Source: Promethearchaeota archaeon (lineage in GTDB: Archaea; Asgardarchaeota; Lokiarchaeia; Sigyniarchaeales; SOKP01). Taken from it: a stretch of DNA of 64,000 nucleotides. The stretch lies in contig JAHPZE010000001.1 of assembly GCA_019058365.1 (NCBI GenBank), positions 384,001-448,000 of the forward strand, written 5' to 3'. Under the pieces are notes generated by a model. The model did no database searches, was not told the origin of the DNA, and was given only the letters and a program-made list of their open reading frames with translations. The position numbers were made by a program, and so were the translations under genes. Of the stretch, positions 2,232 to 53,407 are shown piece by piece; position 1 is the first letter of the stretch, and every line of letters begins with the position of its first letter.

Positions 2232-5200
2232 TTACTTTTTAAATTTCTTTTTAATTAGCACTAGAGTTGTAAGAGAGACTAATCCTACTAAAATAAATGG
2301 ATTATAACCTGGGATTCCACCTGATTCAGAAGGAGATAAAATTTCAAAATAGTCGCTATAATCATAAACATTAGGATGTAATATGTCTATAATTTTTATT
2401 CGATATTGATCTGAAGCATTTAGTTCTATTGGAAGTGACCAAGAAAATAAACCATCATTAGTTTCACTTGCACTTATTTCCATTATAAATTGGTTCCCAT
2501 CATATAGCTCTAATTTCACATTCGGAATTGTTCCTATTGAAGTCCAGTTTACATCATAAGATAATCCTATTATCCACTGACTAGCGCTTTCTGGTGCAGT
2601 AACTGTAATTGAAGGAGTGAAGATTTCAAAATATTCACTTGTATCAACATTATCGAAATAATCCATATCAATCAGTTTTATTTGATATTGGGTAGAATCT
2701 GTTAATCCTTCGGGAATTACCCATAGGAAATCACCATCATTAGGGGTACTACCAATAATTTCAGATACAAATACTCCACCTCGATAGAGTTCAATTTTAA
2801 CATTCTTAATATTTGGTGTCGGATCCCATGTTATGTGATAGGAACCATAAACCTCCCATGTGGAAGCTGTATCAGGTGTGATAATATGATTTGTGTAATC
2901 ATAACTAGTCGGACTATACATCACTAAGTTTTCAAGTAATTTTGTATAATTGAAATTTGCATTCCATTCAAGAGTCTGAGTATACATTACTATATACCCA
3001 CTTCCATATTCTAATTCAAGTAACACAGGATTAGAGCTCGCAACATCAAGTAGAATCTCTTTTGCTTGAGCAGGATAGGAATGAAAATATCCATGTGCAG
3101 ACCACCCCCAATCATCGAGCCCATCATCTTCGACTAAGTAAGGATTGAGTAACACAGGATGATAGGGTATATTAATTGAAACATTGTTAAGATAGGATTG
3201 TGTCTTATTAATACCTCCAGGTAATAAATAGGAATCATCCCATACTCCACCACCCCATCCGCTATCACAAGCAGAGAATTGTAAAATTCCACCATTAAAC
3301 GCATAATCTTCAAACCAAGTAACATTTCCAGCAAGTCTATCGTAGAATGCTTGGGTTTGGTCGGAAGAAATTATCACTTTATCATAAGGTGAGAGATCTA
3401 CTGAACCAAAATCTAAAGAGTCATACATATCATATGTGATATTATATTTGACTAATATAGGTTCTGTATCATTATTATTCCATGGATATCTATCTTGAAA
3501 CATTGCAACGGGACCTAAAATTGGGATGTATTTTGAATCAAGATAGATGTATAAGTAATCATCATCCCCATTCCAGTTAATAAAATCATTGTATGATTTT
3601 TCATAGAATCCAGGATAAGTAACATTTACAGTCCACCATCCAATATATAAACCTGTTACATTATAGAACCCAGAGCTATCTGTAAAGCCTTCATTGAATA
3701 ATTCTCCATTTGACATGTTATAACATCTTACATATGCATTTTCAATAGGATTAGTTGTGACACTATCACGTACCCTCACTTCAATATAGCCACTATCGGG
3801 GGGCAAAGGATCCATTCCAAAGTAAAGATAATCGTCATCCCCATTATAATTAATAAATTCCGAGAGCACCTTATCATAGTATCCTACTTTTGATACATAA
3901 ACATCATACCATCCTACATCCAATCCTGTTATATTATAAAACCCACTGCTATCTGTAGATCCAGAAGCTACTATATCATTAGTTGCATTTCTACATGTTA
4001 CGAGAGCAGATTGAATTGGGTTTGTGGTTATACTATCTTCAACCGTTACTTCAATATAACCTGTGGGAGGTGGGATAGGAGGATCGTTCACAGTTATTTG
4101 CGTTGAAATATATGCTATATTATCACTCTCATCAAATTCATCGATATAATCATATCTGTCGATAATCCATCCGACATAATAATTCCCAGCAGGAATGCTA
4201 GATGGAAAAGTGCCAGACCATAATGAATCTCCATAACTAAAAGGAGAAATTGATGACACATAATCAACACCTATTAAATAGTCAGCTGTGGATATAACAG
4301 TATTAGTAGAAGCATAATAATAAACATAGAAGCCTCCCGTATAGGCGGTTCCTACATTTCTTACATCACTCCATACACTAAAACTGGTTTGTCCTCTGGT
4401 TACTGTTCCTGTATTATAACCTGAATAAGTTGAGCCTCTATCTTTCATATCGGGTTTATCGGTAGGTGATGTATCTGCTGCTAACCAGTCAAAAATCCTA
4501 TTGTATTTATCAGTATTAAATCTCGTACCGTAATTCGAGAGTGTACCGCCCCTACCATAGGCATGAATTGTAAGTACATAACGATTCCCCCCAGTATATT
4601 TCCAAATTGGCATTCCACTCTGTCCTCCAGCCGTATCTATCCAGTAATAATGATTATACTCTGTTGCACCATCTCCATAGTCAAAATCAAAATACATGTC
4701 CTCACCACCTGCTAAATCAGCGGGATAACCAGCACTATTTACTCCATCAGTATAAAGAGTATCAGATGAAGCCGCTGTCATCCGTCCCATCCATCCAGTA
4801 TAAGATCCAACATTTCGATCAAGAGTTAGCATAGCCCAATCATGTTCTGGCATCTGTGATGAGGTCCATCCTGAATAAGAACGCATATATGTCATATATG
4901 CATGTCCAAATGGATCCCAACTACCATCTTTGCCAGGAACTACTTCAATTTCAGTTGCCCATCCACCATGACCATGAATATAGGCACAATGACCCGCTGT
5001 TAAAACATGAAAACCATCAACAATAAAGCCGGATCCAATCCAATGAGAAGCATCAGGGGCAGTAATGTATAATTTGCAAATCGTATTCCATGGGAAAGAT
5101 TCTGTATTAGAAATATAGGTACGATCATCAGGAAGTATAACATCCTCTGGTGTAGGGTAGTTTAAAAGACCTCTATATTCCTCTACGATTGAAGGATAGT

Positions 5201-23993: not shown

Positions 23994-24236
23994 ATGAGAC
24001 CCCCTATTTGTAGAATATGCGATAAGAATCTAGTAGATAAGGATGATGGAGGTTTGATATATTTTAGAAAACGCCCTTCTGATAAAGAATGGGAAAAGAG
24101 GATGGAAGGAATTGGAGGTGTAGGACATCCACCCTATGCAGAATGGTTCTGTAAAAAGCATTATGATAGAGCAAAGGAGCTAAAACATTTACCTATCAAT
24201 GAAGCATTAAAAATTTTAAGATCTGAGGGGACCTAG
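23994..24236 (+). CDS. Small hypothetical Zn-finger-like protein
   Basis: CRIC...GHPPYAEWFCKKH; 80 aa; slight 3' overlap with the convergent mvhD. Confidence 0.55.
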   Translation: MRPPICRICDKNLVDKDDGGLIYFRKRPSDKEWEKRMEGIGGVGHPPYAEWFCKKHYDRAKELKHLPINEALKILRSEGT

Positions 24237-24650
24237 TTCCTTAATCTGGTGAGTAAATTCTGTAATTACCTCAGCAAACCGTTTTCCTTCAGATGCGCTA
24301 ACCCATTCTAACCGTACCCGCTTAGGATCCACTCCCAATTGTTTAATTAATATAGAATGTAACCTTTCGAATCTTTCTTGAGTGTATTCATTTCCGGTAA
24401 TATAATGACAATCACCTATATGACATCCACTTATAAGGACACCATCAGCACCATTCTTCAATGCCTTTAATACAAATGCAGGGTCTACTCTTCCAGAGCA
24501 CATTACCCTTATAATTCTAATATTTGGGGGATATTGAAACCGAGAAACTCCTGCTAGATCTGCTCCTGCATAGCTACACCAATTGCAACAAAAGACTAAA
24601 ATGTGGGGTTCAAATTCTTCTTTTTCTGCTTTTTTCTTCGACTTTGACAT
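24216..24650 (-). CDS. mvhD: MvhD [2Fe-2S] subunit (Cys form)
   Basis: FCCNWCSYAGAD, MCSGRVD, GCHIGDCHY, WVSASEG. ATG at 24650 preferred because GGTGAT lies upstream as RBS. Confidence 0.93.
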   Translation of the reverse strand: MSKSKKKAEKEEFEPHILVFCCNWCSYAGADLAGVSRFQYPPNIRIIRVMCSGRVDPAFVLKALKNGADGVLISGCHIGDCHYITGNEYTQERFERLHSILIKQLGVDPKRVRLEWVSASEGKRFAEVITEFTHQIKELGPLRS

Positions 24651-29198: not shown

Positions 29199-32100
29199 TT
29201 ACATAGCAAGTGTCCTAATCATTGCATTAATTTGCTCAAAATCGTAATGTTTTATTGAAATTGCCCCAACTGGACAATTAACAGCACAAGTTCCACAGCC
29301 TTTACATAATCCTGAATTAACAGTAGACTTCTTTATCGGAAGGCTCACTTCTTCAAACTTCTTCAGCACTTCTACAATTTCTATTGCGTTATATGAACAT
29401 ACTTCCTCGCATGTCCCACAACCGATACATATCTCTTTTTCTACTTCCGCAATTAATCCAGATGTGGTAATTTCTTCTGCGCTTAAAAATCTGCATGCTC
29501 TTCCTGCTGCGCCATTTGCCTGTGATATTGAGTCTTGGATGTTTTTAGGCCAATGAGCACATCCACATAAGAAAATTCCATCAGTAGCAAAATCTAATGG
29601 TCTTAATTTAACATGAGCCTCCAAAAAAAAACCATTTTTGTCTAATGGAACTTTTAGTTTCTGTGCTAATTCATCTAAGTTATCAGCTGGAACCATTGGT
29701 GTTGATAGTACTATTAAATCCGTGTTAAAATTAATATTTTCTTGTAGATTTGTGTCAAAGACTTTTATTTCAAATTTCTCTCTTCCTCCATTTATATCTC
29801 TAATGACAGGGGGATTGTCTAAATCATATCTCAAAAATATAGCATCCTTTCTTCTTTCACGATAATATCTTTCAAATTCTTTCTTTGCCATTTGAAGATC
29901 TCTATAAAGCACTATTAGCTTTAGATCCTGCTTTATTTCCTTAAGGATATTAATATTTTTTATAGCAGTTTCACAACAAATATTTGAGCAGTAAGTTATC
30001 CCTTTTTCTTGTCTTGCATTAACGCATAATAATGTTGTAATATGATTAAGTTTATCTAACCATGATTGATCTTCATCCTTTAATTTCTGTTCTAATTGTA
30101 ATTGTGTAATTACATTATGGTTCGTATAAGTATATTCAAAAAATTCATTAGGTTTTAACTCTTTTCCACCAGTGGCGACAATAATAGTGCCAATTTTTAA
30201 TTCATGAACATTGCTATCTGAATCGATAACTGAAGCATTATAGTTGCCAAGATATCCATAAATATCTTTCAATTCAGAATTTAAAAAGACTTGAATGTTC
30301 TTATTTTGTGTAACTTTTTCTATAGTTTCATTTAATAAGATTGAAGCATCCTCCTGGGTAGGATATAACATATTCAAATACTTTAAATTGCCACCTAAGT
30401 ATCTGTCTTTTTCTACGAGATAAACTTTAAATCCTTGATTAGCTATACTCAATGCGGCTGTCATTCCAGATATACCTCCACCAATTATCAATGCAGTTTG
30501 AGTAATTTTTAATTTCTCTTCTTTTTGCGATTTTAATAATCTTGATTTAGCAACTCCCATTCTTATTAAATCAATTGCTTTTTTCGTAGCAAGCTCCTTC
30601 TCTTTCATATGTACCCATGAACATTGATCACGGATATTTACCATGTCAAAAAGATACTTGTTTAGACCTGCTTCTTGACATGTCTCTTGGAATAATGATT
30701 CATGGGTTCGTGGGGTACAAGACGCGACAATAAATCGATTTAAATTATATTCACCTATTACTTCTTTAATTCGTTCTTGCGAATCAGAACTACAAGAATA
30801 AAGATTATCTTCACAAAAAACTACATTAGGCAATGTTTTTATGTGTTCTATAACTTGAGGAATCTCAATATATTTTCCAATATTAATACCACAATGACAG
30901 ATGAGGACCCCAATTCTAGGTATATCTGTTTCTTTAACTGCCTTTTCTGGTATCCCTACAATTTTTTCTTGTGTCTCAGTAAACTTAAAAGAATTAAGTA
31001 AAGTTGCTACTTGTGAAGCTACCCCACTGGAATCAGCTACCGTTTCTGGTATATCCATTGGACCTTGGCAAAAACCAGCTAAAAAAATGCCTTCTTTAGA
31101 GGATAAAGATTTACTGTAATATGATTTCTCCTGAAAAAAATTATATTCATCCAACTCGATATTTAAAACTTGAGCTAATTCTCTAGTTCCAGCCGAAGGG
31201 ACTAGGGGTGTGGCCAATACTACTAAATTTGCCTTAAAATCCTTAAATTTACCAATTTTTAGATCTTCATAATGAATTACTAAATCATTTGTTTCTGGAT
31301 CTTCTATTATTCTGCTAATTTTAGTTTGGAAATATTTTACCCCATATTCTGACTGAGCTCGCTGGGTAAACTCGTAGAAGTTTTTTCCATAAGCCCTAAC
31401 ATCATGCCTAAATACAAAACACTGTGAGTTTTCAGAATGTTCCTTAGTTATGATTGCTTCTTTAGCTGTATACATGCAACAAACTGAAGAACAATACGGA
31501 ACACCTTCACGTAAATCCCTTGAACCCGCGCATTGAATAAATGCTATTTTTTCTGGCTCTTTCGCATCGCTAGGTCTTACAATATGCCCCTGAAATGGTC
31601 CAGAAGCTGATAATATTCGCTCATATTCCAAAGCACTTACCACATTTTTATAATTATAACCCCATCTTGAGGTTAACTCTTCTCCTAACACATCATATCC
31701 AGTAGCAACAACAATAGCACCAACGTTCAATTTGATTTCTTGAGGTTTCTGTTCATAATCTATGGCTTCTGCCTTACAAACTTTCTCACAGACCCCGCAT
31801 ACTCCTTTAGTTAATTTTAAACACAATTCAGAGTCAATTAAGTATACCGGAGGTACTGCTTGAGGAAATGGAATGTAGATTGACTTTCTTTTACCAAGAT
31901 TCATATCAAAGATGTTAGGGGTTTCAATCTTTGGACATTTAGCAGCACAGTCACCACAGCCTTTACATTTAGTCTCATCAATATAACGAGGTTTCTTAAG
32001 TACTGTAACATCAAAATTACTTGCGTTTCCAGAAACTTTTTGAACTTCATGATAAGTCATTAATTCAATGTTAGGATTTCTAAATACTTCCACCATTTTA

Positions 32101-43156: not shown

Positions 43157-43588
43157 TTAAATAACTTGCAGTGGTCCTAGTTTTTTAATTTCATTAGTAA
43201 ATTCAGTGATGACTTCAGCAAATCGCTTCCCTTCAGATGCACTTACCCATTCAAGTCTAAATCTTTTTTCAAGATTGAATATTTTTAATATTTCCTTAAA
43301 ATGTTCAAATCTATCCCTAGCAAACTCATTTCCTTTTAAGTAATGACAGTCACCGATATGACATCCTGTCACAATGACTCCATCAATACCATCTTTAAAA
43401 GCCTCCAAAATAAAAGCGGGATCTACTCTACCAGAGCACATCACTCTTACTATCCGAATAGTAGCAGGGTACTGAAAACGAGATACGCCAGCTAAATCTG
43501 CCCCAGCATAACTACACCAATTACAACAAAAACATAATATATTTGGATGGAAATCTTTTTTATTTACTTTCTTTTTTGACTTAGACAT
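43157..43588 (-). CDS. mvhD: MvhD [2Fe-2S] subunit (Cys form)
   Basis: FCCNWCSYAGAD, MCSGRVD, GCHIGDCHY, WVSASEG. Confidence 0.93.
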   Translation of the reverse strand: MSKSKKKVNKKDFHPNILCFCCNWCSYAGADLAGVSRFQYPATIRIVRVMCSGRVDPAFILEAFKDGIDGVIVTGCHIGDCHYLKGNEFARDRFEHFKEILKIFNLEKRFRLEWVSASEGKRFAEVITEFTNEIKKLGPLQVI

Positions 43589-46648: not shown

Positions 46649-47925
46649 TACTTCTCCTCAATATTATAATTAGGTTCTATTAATGTGATCATATTCACTA
46701 AAAATTCTGAAAAATCTATAATTTCTATAGAAGAGAAATCATCATAGTCTTTTTTTAGACAGTTCAAATGCATTCGACATTTTGGACAAGCTGTAATCAT
46801 TTTAGTTCCAACAGCTTTAGCTTCTAACAAACGCTTATATCGTAAAGCTTTTGATCGTTCATTACAATTCATCCAAGAATTTACTCCACAACAATAAGAA
46901 TTTTCTTTATTATGCGCCATTTCTTTAAAATCATAACCAATAGCCTTCAAATATTTGAAGATTTCTCGGACATTCTCAACTATTTTATTATCCTTAGGTA
47001 AAAATCTACTTAATCTACAAGGATCATGAAAAGTAAATTGAATTAGTTCATTAGATTCATTGGGGTTTTTAAATTGAACTTTTCCTTGCTTCCATTTATC
47101 ATAGATATATTCAATTATATGTTTAACTTCAAATTTTTCATTAAAATCTTCAAATAATTTTGGATAATCAATTTTAAATGTTCTATAACATTCAGCACAT
47201 GCTGTTACTATATGTGTAATTCCTGCTTTATCAAACAGTTTAATATTTTTTTTCGCTAATTCAATAAAGCTTTCGAATTTTGCTTGGCCCCAATATAAAT
47301 CATGACCACAGCATACCTCATCTTTCAGAATAACTACTGGATCATTTTCTAATTGACAAATAATCTTAAGTGTGCTTTCTGCTATAGATATTGAATCTTT
47401 GAATTCATAGTTAAAGAAAGGTAAACATCCTACATAATATAAAATATTTCCTCTATCTGAAATTTTACACCCTTTTGGAATCCAATCTAAAGGTCTCTCA
47501 ATTTTAAAATTATCTTGACTCATCATTTCTGACATCAAAGGATAAATACCTTTATGAGCAATAGAACGATCAGGATTTTGAATATCTTTTAACCGCATTT
47601 TATATCTAGCAATTCTGACAATGTCAGCGAAATTTATATCTTTAGGACAATGTTGTAGGCAACTATTACACATTAAACAATCCCATAACACCCTACTATT
47701 GATTATCTCATCTTCAAAACCTTCTAATATTGTTTGAATAATTCTACTAGGTGTAAATTTTTGTACTTTACTTACTTGGCATACACCCGAGCAACGGGCA
47801 CATTGATAACATTTTTTTAGTAAGTTAGATAAATCTGGCTCGAATATTTTTTTCAAATATTCATAATTGTCATCAGAATCTGGTTCTAATTTATCGGACT
47901 TTTTACTTTCAGTTATGGTAGTCAC
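46648..47925 (-). CDS. HdrD/HdrC-B-like Fe-S oxidoreductase
   Basis: Close paralogue of 27767-29047; two [4Fe-4S] motifs and two CCG domains. Confidence 0.9.
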   Translation of the reverse strand: MTTITESKKSDKLEPDSDDNYEYLKKIFEPDLSNLLKKCYQCARCSGVCQVSKVQKFTPSRIIQTILEGFEDEIINSRVLWDCLMCNSCLQHCPKDINFADIVRIARYKMRLKDIQNPDRSIAHKGIYPLMSEMMSQDNFKIERPLDWIPKGCKISDRGNILYYVGCLPFFNYEFKDSISIAESTLKIICQLENDPVVILKDEVCCGHDLYWGQAKFESFIELAKKNIKLFDKAGITHIVTACAECYRTFKIDYPKLFEDFNEKFEVKHIIEYIYDKWKQGKVQFKNPNESNELIQFTFHDPCRLSRFLPKDNKIVENVREIFKYLKAIGYDFKEMAHNKENSYCCGVNSWMNCNERSKALRYKRLLEAKAVGTKMITACPKCRMHLNCLKKDYDDFSSIEIIDFSEFLVNMITLIEPNYNIEEK

Positions 47926-49429
47926 TCCTCTCTTTTTCTTCTTTTAGTTCAATTGGTTTACAATTTTTTCTCTTAGTACCAGCAATTCTTTCTAATAAGG
48001 ATTGCCCCGGTTTAACATCCTCTAAGCTTTTTGATTCTATTAATCCTGCATTAATTGCCTCTTTATAAAGGGTTTCACCCTTTTTATTTCGTGTAATCAC
48101 TGTAGACCACCCACTAGGGGACCCTATTGATCCTACAGAAATATCAGCATAATCGGAGGTCAAGTCTTCGCAATAGTGACAATTATGGCGAGCATAGGAT
48201 TTGACTTCATTTAAGGGTACGTTTAAATCTTCACCCGAATCTAAATAAATGATAAATTTCCCACCACTTATATCCATTTTCGTAACTTTATTAAAATCTG
48301 ATTGGAACTTTTCATTGATTAAGTTAAGAACACCCTCATAAGGAAAAGATTCCATACAAAAAAGCCCTATTCGATATTTAATGTTTGTAAAAAATGGTAG
48401 TCCACTCGGAAATAAAGTACCTTTTTCTAAAGCATTCATCATACAGGGAACGCCTACAACTGCAATGTTTTCATACTTTTTTGTTTCATCTATAATACTT
48501 AAAGTCGAGGCATTAGCGTATTTAGTGCCACTTGTTTTGTAAAGATCTTTAATGTCTTCTATTATCACTGGCTCTGGTTTCCATAACTCCTTCGAATGTT
48601 GTACTGCTACAATCACATCAACTAATTTATTTTTAAGTAAGTATTCAAGCAAAGAGGTAACAATCCCACCATCTTGTCGTACTTTTTTAATATCATTCTT
48701 AGTGGTGCTCGCAGAATAGGTATTTATATAACCATTAATTTGTTCTGAGAACTTTAAGGATTTATCAAGCTTATTTATATTTTTGCCCGCTTGTTCGATT
48801 GAAAATGATCTCGGGCAAACTGAATAACATAAACCGCATTTTATGCAAATTTTATCATCTATCTCCAAAGTATCTGCTGTGGCTGTGATGGCATTCACGG
48901 GACAAATTGATGAACACCAACCACATTGACAGCATACTTCAGAATCAAACACAATAGAAACTGGTTCAAAAAAATGTTCAATAAAATCATCGGGGAGATC
49001 TTTAACTTGATAGCGATAAAAATATTCTTTTTCTTCGACTTCTTTTTCTTCTCCCTTTATTTTCTTGATAACAGTCTTAGTTTTTATATCGATAAGTTCT
49101 TCAATATATCCCTGTTCTTTAAGATAAATTACATCACGAATTACATTTTCTACAGGAAAATCTTTTACAATTTTTGCAATTTCCTCTAAAAATAATGGTT
49201 CTTTACCTTTTAATAATTCTAACACTAATTTACGCTCTGTTTCTGCATCAATCAGGGCATCTAGTATTTCATAAAATTCTTTTTCAGAATACTTTCCAGT
49301 TTTTAAAATTTCATCTTTTGCTTCGAAAAAAGCGCGAATTTGAAAATTTTCTACGGCCTTATAGGTAGCATCCATTAAATTTTTTGGAGATATTCCATTG
49401 AAATTTACGTTATTTGAAATTTGAACCAT
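47909..49429 (-). CDS. FrhB/FpoF-like F420-binding subunit with N-terminal winged-helix-like and ferredoxin domains
   Basis: CCQCGWCSSICP, CIKCGLCYSVCP; QDGGIVTSLL, SGTKY, VGVPC, IGLFCME, CHYCED, ADISVG, GWSTVITR. Confidence 0.88.
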   Translation of the reverse strand: MVQISNNVNFNGISPKNLMDATYKAVENFQIRAFFEAKDEILKTGKYSEKEFYEILDALIDAETERKLVLELLKGKEPLFLEEIAKIVKDFPVENVIRDVIYLKEQGYIEELIDIKTKTVIKKIKGEEKEVEEKEYFYRYQVKDLPDDFIEHFFEPVSIVFDSEVCCQCGWCSSICPVNAITATADTLEIDDKICIKCGLCYSVCPRSFSIEQAGKNINKLDKSLKFSEQINGYINTYSASTTKNDIKKVRQDGGIVTSLLEYLLKNKLVDVIVAVQHSKELWKPEPVIIEDIKDLYKTSGTKYANASTLSIIDETKKYENIAVVGVPCMMNALEKGTLFPSGLPFFTNIKYRIGLFCMESFPYEGVLNLINEKFQSDFNKVTKMDISGGKFIIYLDSGEDLNVPLNEVKSYARHNCHYCEDLTSDYADISVGSIGSPSGWSTVITRNKKGETLYKEAINAGLIESKSLEDVKPGQSLLERIAGTKRKNCKPIELKEEKERSDYHN

Positions 49430-49494
49430 ATTTCTATCCTTTTGGTTTACAATTTATTAAAAAATTTTAAATTTTAATTGAATACTATTTAAAA

Positions 49495-49562
49495 ACCCCT
49501 TCCCTTGCAAGGTGAGTTCTCTTATAACTAATATTTTTTTATAAGAGTCATTCTACAGGGGT
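49495..49562 (-). ncRNA. Candidate SECIS-like stem-loop overlapping the mvhD(Sec) stop codon
   Basis: mRNA: ACCCCU-GUAGA-AUGA-CUCUUAUAA-[AAAAAUAUUAG]-UUAUAAGAG-AACUCA-CCUUGCAAGG-GA-AGGGGU-UUUU. Perfect 9-bp upper helix right after AUGA, A-rich apical loop, 6-bp lower helix. The 3' GA of the core is out of canonical register. Confidence 0.55.
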
Positions 49563-50009
49563 AGTTATAACTTGTTTTGTTTCAATTTTTGACTCTTCTT
49601 CTACTAAGTTAAGTGGATTTGGTCCAGCTTTGCTTACTTTTTTATAAGCGTCCTCGACAGATTCGACAAATTTCCCAGCATCTCCTCCACTTACCCAATA
49701 CATGTTTATTCTCTGATTTCCGAAACCTCTTGATTCTAAGATTCTGTTTGCTAATTCTACATGTCTTTCGGCTGTGAAATTACCATTTTTAAATTGACAT
49801 TCATTGGGTCGTCAGCCTACAATCATGACACCATCAGCTCCCGAGCGAATACTGTAGAGAATATGCTTAACATCAACTCTACCAGTACATTTTACTTTGA
49901 TTATTTTTACTGCAGGTGTATACTTCAATCGAGAAACTCCCGCTAAATCAGCAGCACTATAACCTCATTTTAAACATGCAAAAATAATCATTTTATACCT
50001 ATTTTTCAT
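49548..50009 (-). CDS. mvhD: MvhD/VhuD selenoprotein, 153 aa, Sec at codons 15 and 66
   Basis: Absent from the track. MKNRYKMIIFACLK-U-GYSAADLAGVSRLKY...VKCTGRVD...GADGVMIVG-U-RPNECQF...YWVSGGDAGKF. TGA at 49965-49967 and 49812-49814 align to CNWC and GCH cysteines; GGAGGTG RBS. Confidence 0.92.
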
Positions 50010-50015
50010 ACCTGT

Positions 50016-51959
50016 TTAAACACCTCCGAGAAGACCGTCAATTTCAGCAAATAATTGATGATCTCGATAATATCTGATATCAATTGCTTGAGTAGGACAA
50101 CATGTAGCACAAATACCGCATCCGTCACAATTTGTCTCATCAATAAATGCACCGATATCCTTCTCAATTCTAATGGCGTTTTTGGGACACTCTTTTTCGC
50201 ATCGTCCACATGAAATACAGAATTCGCTGTTCACTTCAGCAGTAATTAGTTCTATATCGATTTGTCCTGGTGCTGTTAACTCAGCTGCTTTGCTAGCCGC
50301 TGCCCTCGCTTGAGAAACGGAATAAGAAATATTTTTTGGTCCTTGAGCAAATCCAGCTATAAAAATTCCTTTTGATTTCGTTTCTTGCGGCATGAGTCCG
50401 AAATGGGATTCTGTGAGGAACCCGTATGTATTAGTATCAAGGTTTAGTACTTGTACAATCTGATTAGTACCTTTTGAAGGGAGTGCTGCTGAGGATAATA
50501 CGACTAAATCTGCATCAATTATTACGATCTTATCTGTTAGTGTTGAATAGACGCGAACCTTCACATTTTTAGTTTCAGGATCTTCAGAGATTTCCCCTAC
50601 TTTTCCGCGAATCATTTTAATTCCTACATCTTTAGCTCGTTCATAGTACTCTTCAAATCCTTTTTCGGGAGTTCTTATATCAATATAACAGATTGTAATA
50701 TTCGCATCGGGAAATTCTTCGAGCAATAACCTTCCGTTTTTTAGAGCGAGCATGCAACACACACCACTACAATAAGTTCGTTCATTTTCTCGACTTCCTA
50801 CGCATTGTATAAATACAATTTCTTTTAACTTCTTATTATCAGAAATTCGATGAACATGACCTTCAAGTGGACCATTTGGAGCAAGTATTCGTTCTAACTG
50901 AACTTGAGTTATGACATTCTCAAATTCTCCGTATCCATATTCACCAAAAGGTTCGTAGATATCCCATCCAGTTGCTATAATGATTGTACCAACTTCAATA
51001 TCAACTTCTGTAGGCACTTGACTGAAATCAATGGCATCTAATTCACAGGCATCTACACAGGAAAAACACTCAATACACGCATCCCTGTCGATATCATATA
51101 GAAACGGTACTGCTTGACCAAATGGAATATCAATTGCTTTTCGCGCTCCCAAATGTTCATCAAAATAATTGCTCACATATAAAGGACAAACCTCACTGCA
51201 TGCACCACATCCATTACAGTCGTCCGTCGTATATCGCGGTTTCCTTTCAATAGTTACTTTATAGTTCCCGACATATCCTTCTACTTTTTTTACTTCACTA
51301 TAGGTGACTAATTCAATATTCTCATTTCTATTAACTTCTAACATTTTGGGACCACAAATTCATATAGCACAATCGTCTGTAGGAAAGGTTCTGTCTAACT
51401 GAGACATTCTCCCTCCTATTGTAGTTTTTTGATCAACTAAATATACCTTGATGCCTTGATTCGCAAGATCGAGAGCCGCATTCATACCACAAATCCCAGC
51501 TCCAATAACTAATGAGGCTTTTGTAACTGGAACTGTCTTAATTGGCACTGGCTCTAATCGTTTTACTCTTTCAATTCCACTTTTCACTAAGATTTTTGCC
51601 TTCTCTGTAGCTTCTTCTTTACTATCTGTGCACCATGAACACTGTTCACGAACATTTACCATTTGAAAGTAGTATGGATTTAGGGCAGTTTTAGCTATTG
51701 TCCCCCGATAAATAACCTCATGTGTACGTGGGGTTCAAGCAGATGCTACAATTCGGTCTAGATTTTTTTCTTTAATATCTTTAATAATTTCATTTTGAGC
51801 ATTATCGGTGCATAGAAAAGCATTTTTTTTAGCAATTACGACATCATCAAAAGTCTTACTTACGTATTCTACAAGCTCATCGCAATCTACTTTAGTCCTA
51901 ATATTTACTCCTCATTGACAAGCATAGTATCCAATCCGATGATTTTCATTATTATTCAT
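50016..51959 (-). CDS. hdrA: HdrA selenoprotein, 647 aa, Sec at codons 16, 75 and 200
   Basis: One frame joins the two track ORFs and an untracked 5' part: RIGYYACQ-U-GVNI (51912-51914), VASA-U-TPRTHE (51735-51737), FPTDDCAI-U-ICGPKM (51360-51362). Canonical HdrA length and domain order. Confidence 0.92.
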
Positions 51960-52429
51960 CTCTTTTTACACATCCACCTCTAGCTTTTACATAATTGTAT
52001 ATTCATAAATTTCTTAGATTTTTATTGGATGTTTTTTAAGTTCCAATATTGATCTTTTTGTAACGATCGATATTAAATATTTTTTTTAATTGTATTTACA
52101 TTTTCAATATTTTTAATAGTTTTTGTTACCATATATAAGCAAATATTTGTAAAGCGGTCACAACATCAAAATATTTTTGACCAGATTGAAGATTTTTAAC
52201 TATTTTTTTTTGAAGATAATCATAGAAAGAGGAATTTATGATCGATCTTAAACATTTTTATTTAAGAACTTCTTAATCAAATTGGATTCTATTTTGCATT
52301 GATTCTAATCTTTATAAGATTTGACATTTTTATCAAAAAGACCAAGAATACTAAAATTGATGTTAATTCAATAAAGCTGATAAAAAGAGAAAAAGTTAAT
52401 TCTCCTCATAAAAATTATAGGACTCAATT

Positions 52430-53407
52430 CTAATGAAGATCATTATTTAAGTACTCTTTATAATAGTGAGATTTATTTAAAAGGTATTTTTGAACAATTG
52501 GTTTAAATATCATAGTAAAAAATCGTGAAATGACTACTTTTTTTTTTACCGCATTGAAATAATCATCGAGAGTATATCTTTGATAATTAAGAAATGCTTG
52601 ACTTTTATCTGTTGTCATGAATCCGCAATGAAATCCCCTCCCTCGCCTGAAAGCTTCCTCAGGCAATCCTTCAAAACCTATACCAAAAATGTCTAGCATT
52701 TCCTTAAGATAATCACGATATGAAATCCGACATCTATCTCCGCCTGCAATATGCATAACTTCTCCCCAAATTTTTTCATTTTCCACAGCATTGGTAAGAG
52801 CAAGACCCACATCTTTGGTATCGCAGATTTCTATACAAGTTTCAAGAGGCATTTCAAACATTAAAGGATCCATTTGCAATTTATTCAAAGAGACAATATA
52901 AGTCAACCGAAAAATCGCCCAATCCAAAGAAGAGTTCTTAATTAATTCCTCACACTTTAATTTTTGTTTGGCATATTCATCATCAACGTTTGGATTTAGT
53001 GTATCATCTGGTGTTATTAAAGGATTTTCAAGTCGATCTCCGTATACTGCTACTGAAGATGTAAAAATGAGTTTTGGTTTTTTAGGCTGATTTTCCATAG
53101 CTTTAACAATATTAGCAGTTCCTCCAACATTTACAGATTCTGCAAATTTAGGTTTTTTATCGGCAAGAGGTGGAATAATTGCTGCTACATGAATAATAAC
53201 ATCTCTATCAGCAACAGCCTTTTCGACATTATTATAATTCCTTAAATCTCCCCAAAAGATTTCTACATCTTTCTTGTATTTAATTGCCAACCTTTTGTTC
53301 CTTCTAGTTTTAATATCAAAAATTCTAATATCATAATTTCTTTTAAGCATTTCTTTTAATGTGCTCAATCCTACATTACCAAATGCTCCTGTTAATAAAA
53401 CTTTCAT
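52430..53407 (-). CDS. NAD-dependent epimerase/dehydratase (extended SDR)
   Basis: TGAFGNVG, HVAA, TSSVAVYG, YAKQK. Confidence 0.9.
   Translation of the reverse strand: MKVLLTGAFGNVGLSTLKEMLKRNYDIRIFDIKTRRNKRLAIKYKKDVEIFWGDLRNYNNVEKAVADRDVIIHVAAIIPPLADKKPKFAESVNVGGTANIVKAMENQPKKPKLIFTSSVAVYGDRLENPLITPDDTLNPNVDDEYAKQKLKCEELIKNSSLDWAIFRLTYIVSLNKLQMDPLMFEMPLETCIEICDTKDVGLALTNAVENEKIWGEVMHIAGGDRCRISYRDYLKEMLDIFGIGFEGLPEEAFRRGRGFHCGFMTTDKSQAFLNYQRYTLDDYFNAVKKKVVISRFFTMIFKPIVQKYLLNKSHYYKEYLNNDLH

Follow-up and report, generated by a model that had tools for sequence, protein, structure and literature searches.

The hdrA-mvhD locus and the element at its 3' end

The window analyzed is a stretch of 64,000 nucleotides from a Promethearchaeota archaeon of the Lokiarchaeia, and hdrA, mvhD and the SECIS-like element all lie on its minus strand. 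When TGA was read as U, the hdrA open reading frame extended over 50016..51959 (647 codons, stop UAA at 50018..50016), with in-frame UGA (Sec) codons at 51914..51912, 51737..51735 and 51362..51360. Pfam assigned FAD/NAD-binding and 4Fe-4S domains to its product, identifying it as an HdrA-type flavoprotein. The mvhD (vhuD) gene occupies 49548..50009 (153 codons, ATG at 50009, stop UGA at 49550..49548). It has in-frame UGA (Sec) codons at 49967..49965 and 49814..49812 and encodes an MvhD/FlpD protein (PF02662 FlpD, E = 1.2e-41 by Pfam). The spacer between the hdrA UAA and the mvhD ATG is 6 nt, which leaves no room for a separate mvhD promoter; from this spacing, hdrA and mvhD are probably carried on one bicistronic mRNA. 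A Cys-only FrhB/FdhB-like gene (PF04432 and PF04422) follows on the same strand at 47909..49429, its start lying 118 nt past the mvhD stop.

Each of the five internal UGA codons of hdrA and mvhD is aligned with Cys or with UGA in the paralogues encoded by the genome, indicating that they are Sec codons and not damage. Both mvhD positions are Cys in the Cys-type paralogues. The AUGA of the element lies downstream of the five codons, at distances of 263 to 2363 nt. Two Cys-type mvhD paralogues lie within the window itself, at 24228-24602 and 43172-43540, both on the minus strand; neither is followed by a SECIS, and the second closes the six-gene cluster that begins with Sec-hdrA.

The element spans 68 nt of the minus strand, 49562..49495. 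The original prediction described an AUGA supplied by the mvhD stop codon, a perfect 9-bp helix and an A-rich apical loop, and these features were found at 49551..49519. The AUGA core is at 49551..49548, so placed that its UGA (49550..49548) is the mvhD stop. The 5' strand of the stem, CUCUUAUAA (49547..49539), forms nine Watson-Crick pairs out of nine with the 3' strand, UUAUAAGAG (49527..49519). The stem encloses an 11-nt apical loop, AAAAAUAUUAG (49538..49528), with AAAAA at its start and AG at its end. Directly 3' of the stem is AA (49518..49517) in place of the usual core GA, the variant designated AUGA_AA. The 3' GA had originally been considered out of register and the helix short. What follows the 9-bp stem is really AA, a documented core variant, and 9 bp is the normal length for the lokiSECIS class.

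Below the core, A49554 and G49553 (the C-stem, 49553..49554) are paired with C49516 and U49515, and A49552, A49551 and U49550 form a 3-nt bulge (AAU). The kink-turn features that can be recognized in the sequence are the G-C and A-U pairs, the AAU bulge, a G.A pair and then an A.A that replaces A.G, and the core is predicted to adopt k-turn geometry. The AA is followed by CUC, then A, and then by a 3' mini-hairpin at 49512..49502 (CCU, loop UGCAA, GGG). A single A separates the mini-hairpin from AGGGGU (49500..49495), the 3' strand of an outer, or lower, helix whose 5' strand, ACCCCU (49562..49557), lies within the mvhD coding sequence and is connected to the AUGA by GUAG and then A. This lower helix and the U-run at its end had also been predicted, and both are present; the U5 run is at 49495..49491 and overlaps an TTTAAATA motif at 49493..49486. 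The U5 run is possibly the archaeal termination signal of hdrA-mvhD, and TTTAAATA possibly the TATA box of the next gene. The block AAAUAGUAUUCAAUUAAAA that follows TTTAAATA (window 49468-49493, minus strand) is near-identical in most same-genus loci (13/19). Placed downstream of the SECIS and ahead of the FrhB-like gene, it may act as the promoter of that gene.

Specificity, conservation and covariation

The fold stability of the element was unremarkable (z = -1.35 against dinucleotide shuffles), so that stability alone cannot carry the SECIS claim. A search of Rfam gave no family at the gathering threshold over the whole window and none at E <= 10 in 47500-52500, a silence that is expected because lokiSECIS is not an Rfam family. 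The genome (4.74 Mb, 29.5% G+C) was scanned with a strict pattern: ATGA, a stem with at least eight of nine positions paired, an A-rich loop of 11 nt whose last nucleotide is G, and GA or AA after the stem. There were six matches, and all six lie directly 3' of UGA-containing ORFs. A covariance model was trained on these six copies. With filters off, the focal element scored 52.8 bits and the runner-up in the window 19.4 bits, although the score of the focal element is partly by construction because it is one of the six training sequences. The model added three genomic copies, again behind ORFs with in-frame UGA, bringing the total to nine. The next three matches in the genome were weak and not behind UGA-containing ORFs.

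The original prediction would have been weakened by an element equally present behind Cys-only genes. Since no Cys-only orthologue of mvhD occurs among the 76 loci described below, the control drew on the 15 mvhD paralogues of the genome. An element was located within 400 nt of all four Sec-type paralogues, which have two UGA codons each. None of the 11 Cys-type paralogues had a covariance-model match or a match to a relaxed pattern. In this genome the element is tied exclusively to Sec genes.

A stand-alone HdrA-like ORF with two in-frame UGA codons (an open frame of ~678 codons) was found elsewhere in the genome (C16:343500-347200, locus L002). It has its own lokiSECIS of the AUGA_AA type at C16:346840-346874, 14 nt past its stop, and no mvhD gene lies between that stop and the SECIS.

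Several other selenoprotein candidates were encountered in the genome. Two paralogous 158-aa ORFs on the plus strand (C34:290239-290715 and 292028-292504, equivalent to L004:1740-2216 and 3529-4005) contain a tandem in-frame UGA-UGA, that is, a Sec-Sec dipeptide (...DUUA... and ...CUUE...). They are without a Pfam match, and a lokiSECIS follows each. Matches to this family were obtained in 31 of 41 related genomes, with both UGA codons kept in nearly all, and in same-genus genomes the similarity runs to the C-terminus. The database homologues are annotated as 'hypothetical protein' and are ~122 aa long, the length expected from a cut at the first UGA. The family seems unlike any of the seven Asgard selenoprotein families named in PMC11227280. 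Two further SECIS copies (C35:297180-297220 and C16:318504-318544) each lie behind a small putative selenoprotein with a hydrophobic N-terminal part. One of these proteins has ~136 codons, the motif ...CFUH... and a GUGA-core SECIS; the other has 89 codons and the motif ...GCGUGG....

An HdrA search recovered 80 loci from Promethearchaeota/Promethearchaeia MAGs at 74-94% identity. In all 75 loci that are untruncated before the end of mvhD, exactly one covariance-model match (E <= 1) was obtained, and in each case it was at the mvhD 3' end. The position of the hairpin is conserved in these loci. Over ~2.5 kb to either side, neither the sequence upstream of hdrA, the intergenic spacer nor any other place in the 75 loci gave a second match at E <= 1. 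The original claim that no SECIS precedes hdrA or separates the two genes was borne out, and neither Rfam in the window nor the covariance model in the window and the 75 loci revealed a better SECIS elsewhere in the transcript.

The AUGA is invariant in 76 of 76 loci, as are loop positions 3-5 (AAA) and the final G of the loop; position 6 (U) is nearly so. The 3' dinucleotide of the core is AA in 12 of the 76, the focal locus included, and GA in most others. Compensatory changes in the hairpin had been named as a check on the prediction. Both partners of every one of the nine stem pairs vary across the six paralogous copies, but these were selected for pairing, so that the result shows shared geometry only. 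The 75 orthologues likewise have compensatory changes at all nine stem pairs, and 94% of the alignment cells are paired, as compared to 41-58% when the partner strand was slid. Furthermore, RNAalifold independently predicted the inner eight stem pairs from an unfitted MAFFT alignment. The first stem pair is unpaired in about half of the orthologues, which fits a non-Watson-Crick position beside tandem G.A pairs.

Raw complementarity of the lower helix was rejected as evidence. All 76 loci score at least 14, yet so do 57% of controls in which the 3' flank was reversed, because a C-run faces a G-run; column-wise covariation was used instead. In the unfitted MAFFT alignment of the 76 loci, five of the six lower-helix pairs have changed on both sides (for example, U-A in 29 loci vs. 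C-G in 22), and variants such as ACUCCC/GGGAGU and AGCUCC/GGAGCU occur. Additionally, 75 of the 76 loci retain the G-C pair of the C-stem below the bulge, and the A-U pair covaries (AU 41, GU 8, UA 5, GC 2 among the 76).

The two C-G pairs of the mini-hairpin are kept in 70 and 73 of the 76 loci, respectively, and its third pair covaries (UA 29, UG 21, AU 8, CG 3). An equivalent mini-hairpin with a GC-containing loop accompanies all nine SECIS copies of the genome. The mini-hairpin was seen in addition in 21 elements that follow genes of an unrelated family, and the layout is shared by GC-rich members of the same order with an MvhD of only ~44% identity. The 5-nt loop of the mini-hairpin nearly always contains GC, as in UGCAA, UGCGA, CGCAA, AGCAA and UUGCU. 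When the nine genomic copies were folded without constraints, five or six of them formed the complete junction (outer helix, SECIS arm and mini-hairpin), and eight formed an outer helix. We tentatively suggest that the SECIS of this Asgard order may be a three-way junction composed of a kink-turn core with its 9-bp arm, the 3' mini-hairpin and an outer closing helix, a proposal that is at present possible rather than probable. If it is true, an archaeal SECIS-binding factor could recognize the extra arms as a second determinant, and the arms could explain the failure of a minimal lokiSECIS in Methanococcus (see below). The covariation behind the junction could guide the choice of RNA constructs for first binding or reporter assays.

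Proposed recoding of the upstream UGA codons and termination at the last

The best explanation, to which we assign a probability of roughly 0.85, is that the element is the SECIS of the bicistronic hdrA-mvhD mRNA and belongs to the published, eukaryote-like lokiSECIS class. The A.A pair of the core, instead of the usual A.G, counts against it. That one element serves both genes, as originally proposed, has comparative support in the single match per locus (75/75), and the element is most likely shared, serving all five UGA codons of hdrA and mvhD.

In the proposed mechanism, the RNA would fold around a kink-turn-type core made of a short G-C/A-U stem, the AAU bulge and the GA of AUGA opposite AA. 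The 9-bp helix with its 11-nt A-rich loop would stand above the core, and the 3' mini-hairpin and the closing helix below it. This structure would be read by a factor, for which the archaeal EFSec itself and a protein of the L7Ae family are candidates, and Sec-tRNASec would thereby reach ribosomes that have paused at any of the five UGA codons upstream, across the cistron boundary. Such recruitment of EFSec and Sec-tRNASec by a kink-turn-type core is suggested by the class to which the element belongs and by analogy with eukaryotic and archaeal SECIS biology. Once the mvhD stop (the sixth UGA) occupies the A site, the mRNA channel of the ribosome would take in the 5' side of the helix, so that the element would melt and the release factor would win. 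This escape of the terminal UGA through helix unwinding is presumed from the size of the ribosome footprint and from stop-codon statistics.

The stop codons in the 76 loci are consistent with the original suggestion that the terminal UGA is shielded by its position inside the element. The hdrA gene ends on UAA in 63 loci, on UAG in 13 and on UGA in none. Its orthologues have three to five in-frame UGA codons, except for one locus counted with a single UGA, and mvhD has two in all 76. In 53 of the 76 loci mvhD stops at the UGA within the AUGA; otherwise its stop is mostly a UAA or UAG 5-19 nt upstream.

It was also considered that the terminal UGA may be partly leaky, in which case some ribosomes would add Sec-Leu-Leu and stop at the UAA three codons on (49541..49539). 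This UAA had been regarded as a back-up stop in the original prediction. It is present, and 62 of 76 loci have an in-frame UAA at the same distance from the UGA. However, it belongs to the conserved helix (UAUAA), so that its conservation needs no coding explanation and it cannot be read as a selected back-up stop. The same UAA is found also in loci with an earlier UAA or UAG as the mvhD stop. Moreover, judging from the ribosome footprint, the 5' strand of the helix should already be within the ribosome when the UGA is in the A site, and leakiness is considered unlikely.

Alternatively, the element may serve mvhD only, with another signal, located within hdrA or 5' of it, recoding the three hdrA UGA codons. 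For any SECIS it is unusual to act over 2.4 kb and past a stop and a restart, and a differently shaped signal would escape the covariance model. Furthermore, the runner-up match of the window, at 52446..52398 (19.4 bits, E = 0.15), is ~440 nt upstream of hdrA. As a second SECIS this match was rejected; its loop is 19 nt and its AUGA falls within the last coding part of an unrelated epimerase-like gene. It is also without a counterpart at E <= 1 in the 75 orthologous loci. No Rfam SECIS family, archaeal types included, was detected anywhere in 47500-52500, and RNAz found no other conserved structure in HdrA genes (PMC4989117). Additionally, an element of this kind closely follows the stop of the stand-alone Sec-hdrA, indicating that hdrA does use this SECIS class. 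An element confined to mvhD is therefore improbable.

A further reading, in which the hairpin has no role in selenocysteine insertion and instead ends the transcript, directs its processing or binds a protein (as a terminator or L7Ae site), is highly improbable. In its favor, the hairpin is located in an intergenic spacer next to the U5 run, and a U-run of at least 4 follows the element in 59 of 76 loci. That run is missing in the other 17, however, and a scan of 49300-50100 found no bacterial-type terminator. A terminator also has no need of the conserved unpaired AUGA, the loop AAA or the final loop G. Finally, the hairpin is absent after 11 of 11 Cys-type mvhD genes, whereas it follows every Sec-type one and also Sec genes that are unrelated.

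A host with lokiSECIS elements is expected to carry the archaeal Sec machinery (tRNASec, PSTK, SepSecS, EFSec and SPS/SelD). The genome encodes SepSecS (381 bits), an EFSec-like protein (240.9 bits) and a PSTK-like protein (150.7 bits), and has two Sec-containing selD genes. The selD genes are on the minus strand (C30:28235-29104 and 31024-31818), ~2 kb apart, with one in-frame UGA each. The covariance model gave no match downstream of either, which agrees with the different (type II) SECIS reported for selD. No tRNA-Sec was found in the genome with Rfam RF01852, which matched only tRNA-Gly and tRNA-Ser; ARAGORN, with introns allowed, detected no UCA anticodon in the whole assembly, and there was none in the 20-kb region around EFSec and SepSecS. 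A 31-nt intron in the T-loop has been reported for the Loki tRNASec (PMC4989117), and such an intron may explain the missing match, as may the small tRNA count; ARAGORN detected only 30 tRNA genes in this assembly, whose completeness is rated at 100%. Many tRNAs of the genome, probably including tRNA-Sec, are likely to be split by introns.

Comparison with known systems

In its published definition (Mariotti 2016, PMC4989117), the lokiSECIS has a 9-bp stem preceded by AUGA and a loop of 11 nt that opens with five A's and closes with a G, usually after an A. In that study the stem is followed 3' by GA, or by AA in VhuU. A single lokiSECIS after VhuD was reported to serve a multi-Sec HdrA as well as VhuD across ~2 kb, HdrA never ends in UGA, and in VhuU.1 the AUGA acts as the stop codon. 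A minimal-distance argument was advanced, according to which a UGA close to the element cannot be recoded (PMC4989117). The element described here resembles the lokiSECIS of the HdrA-VhuD pairs in its AUGA, 9-bp stem, 11-nt loop and position at the gene end, in being the one element after vhuD that would be common to a multi-Sec hdrA, and in the lack of a UGA stop in hdrA. It differs in that the core is AUGA_AA, whereas AA is described there only for VhuU, and in that the AUGA is the stop of vhuD/mvhD, the named example there being VhuU.1. The mini-hairpin and the outer helix are not mentioned in the main text of that paper.

More than 400 Asgard genomes were surveyed by Huang, Xiao and Zhang in 2024 (PMC11227280). 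These authors reported AUGA_AA in hdrA/frhD of Lokiarchaeia, one element shared by hdrA and frhD, and UGA stops that often overlap the AUGA. With their type I eSECIS-like elements the present one has in common the GA_[G/A]A core, an upper stem within 7-15 bp and a loop within 8-20 nt, and there is no essential difference. The 'lower stem' of that paper seems to be the short stem just below the core, and its main text does not describe a three-way junction. The layout with a 3' mini-hairpin, absent from the main texts of both PMC4989117 and PMC11227280, may thus be an addition.

The likeness to eukaryotic SECIS elements (Rfam SECIS_1, type I) lies in a putative kink-turn core of the AUGA...GA type, unpaired apical A's, a presumed long-range action from a site at the mRNA 3' end and a lower limit on the distance at which a UGA can be recoded. 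In contrast, helix II is 9 bp here and ~12-15 bp there, A.A replaces A.G, and the element appears to act on two cistrons. SECIS_1 and the related Rfam models gave no match at the gathering threshold in the window, nor at E <= 10 in 47500-52500. The SECIS elements of Methanococcales and Methanopyrus are also 3' of the gene, and their vhuD element likewise carries AUGA...GAC/AAC (PMC4989117). By sequence and fold, however, the present element is without their GAA_A asymmetric internal loop and their G-C clamps. The putative GA/AA core of kink-turn type beside a possible three-way junction is reminiscent of the k-junction, a kink-turn elaborated into a three-way junction (Wang et al. 2014, cited in PMC11227280), but this is a resemblance only.

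The lokiSECIS class as a whole presumably functions in Sec insertion. Asgard archaea are not known to encode an SBP2 homologue (PMC4989117, PMC11227280), and Peiter and Rother's group found a lokiSECIS to be non-functional in Methanococcus maripaludis (PMC11881835).

A shared hdrA-mvhD element with the stop codon inside the SECIS is already published, having been described in Lokiarchaeota in 2016 and across Asgard archaea in 2024, and the present locus is therefore another instance and not a discovery. It is remarkable that one RNA element seemingly recodes five UGA codons over two cistrons and 2.4 kb while a sixth, internal to the element, still terminates, and the arrangement bears on the origin of the eukaryotic SECIS. 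To the published descriptions, the analysis adds the contrast between Sec-type and Cys-type paralogues (4/4 vs. 0/11), the stop-codon statistics over 76 loci and the covariation of the putative three-way junction.
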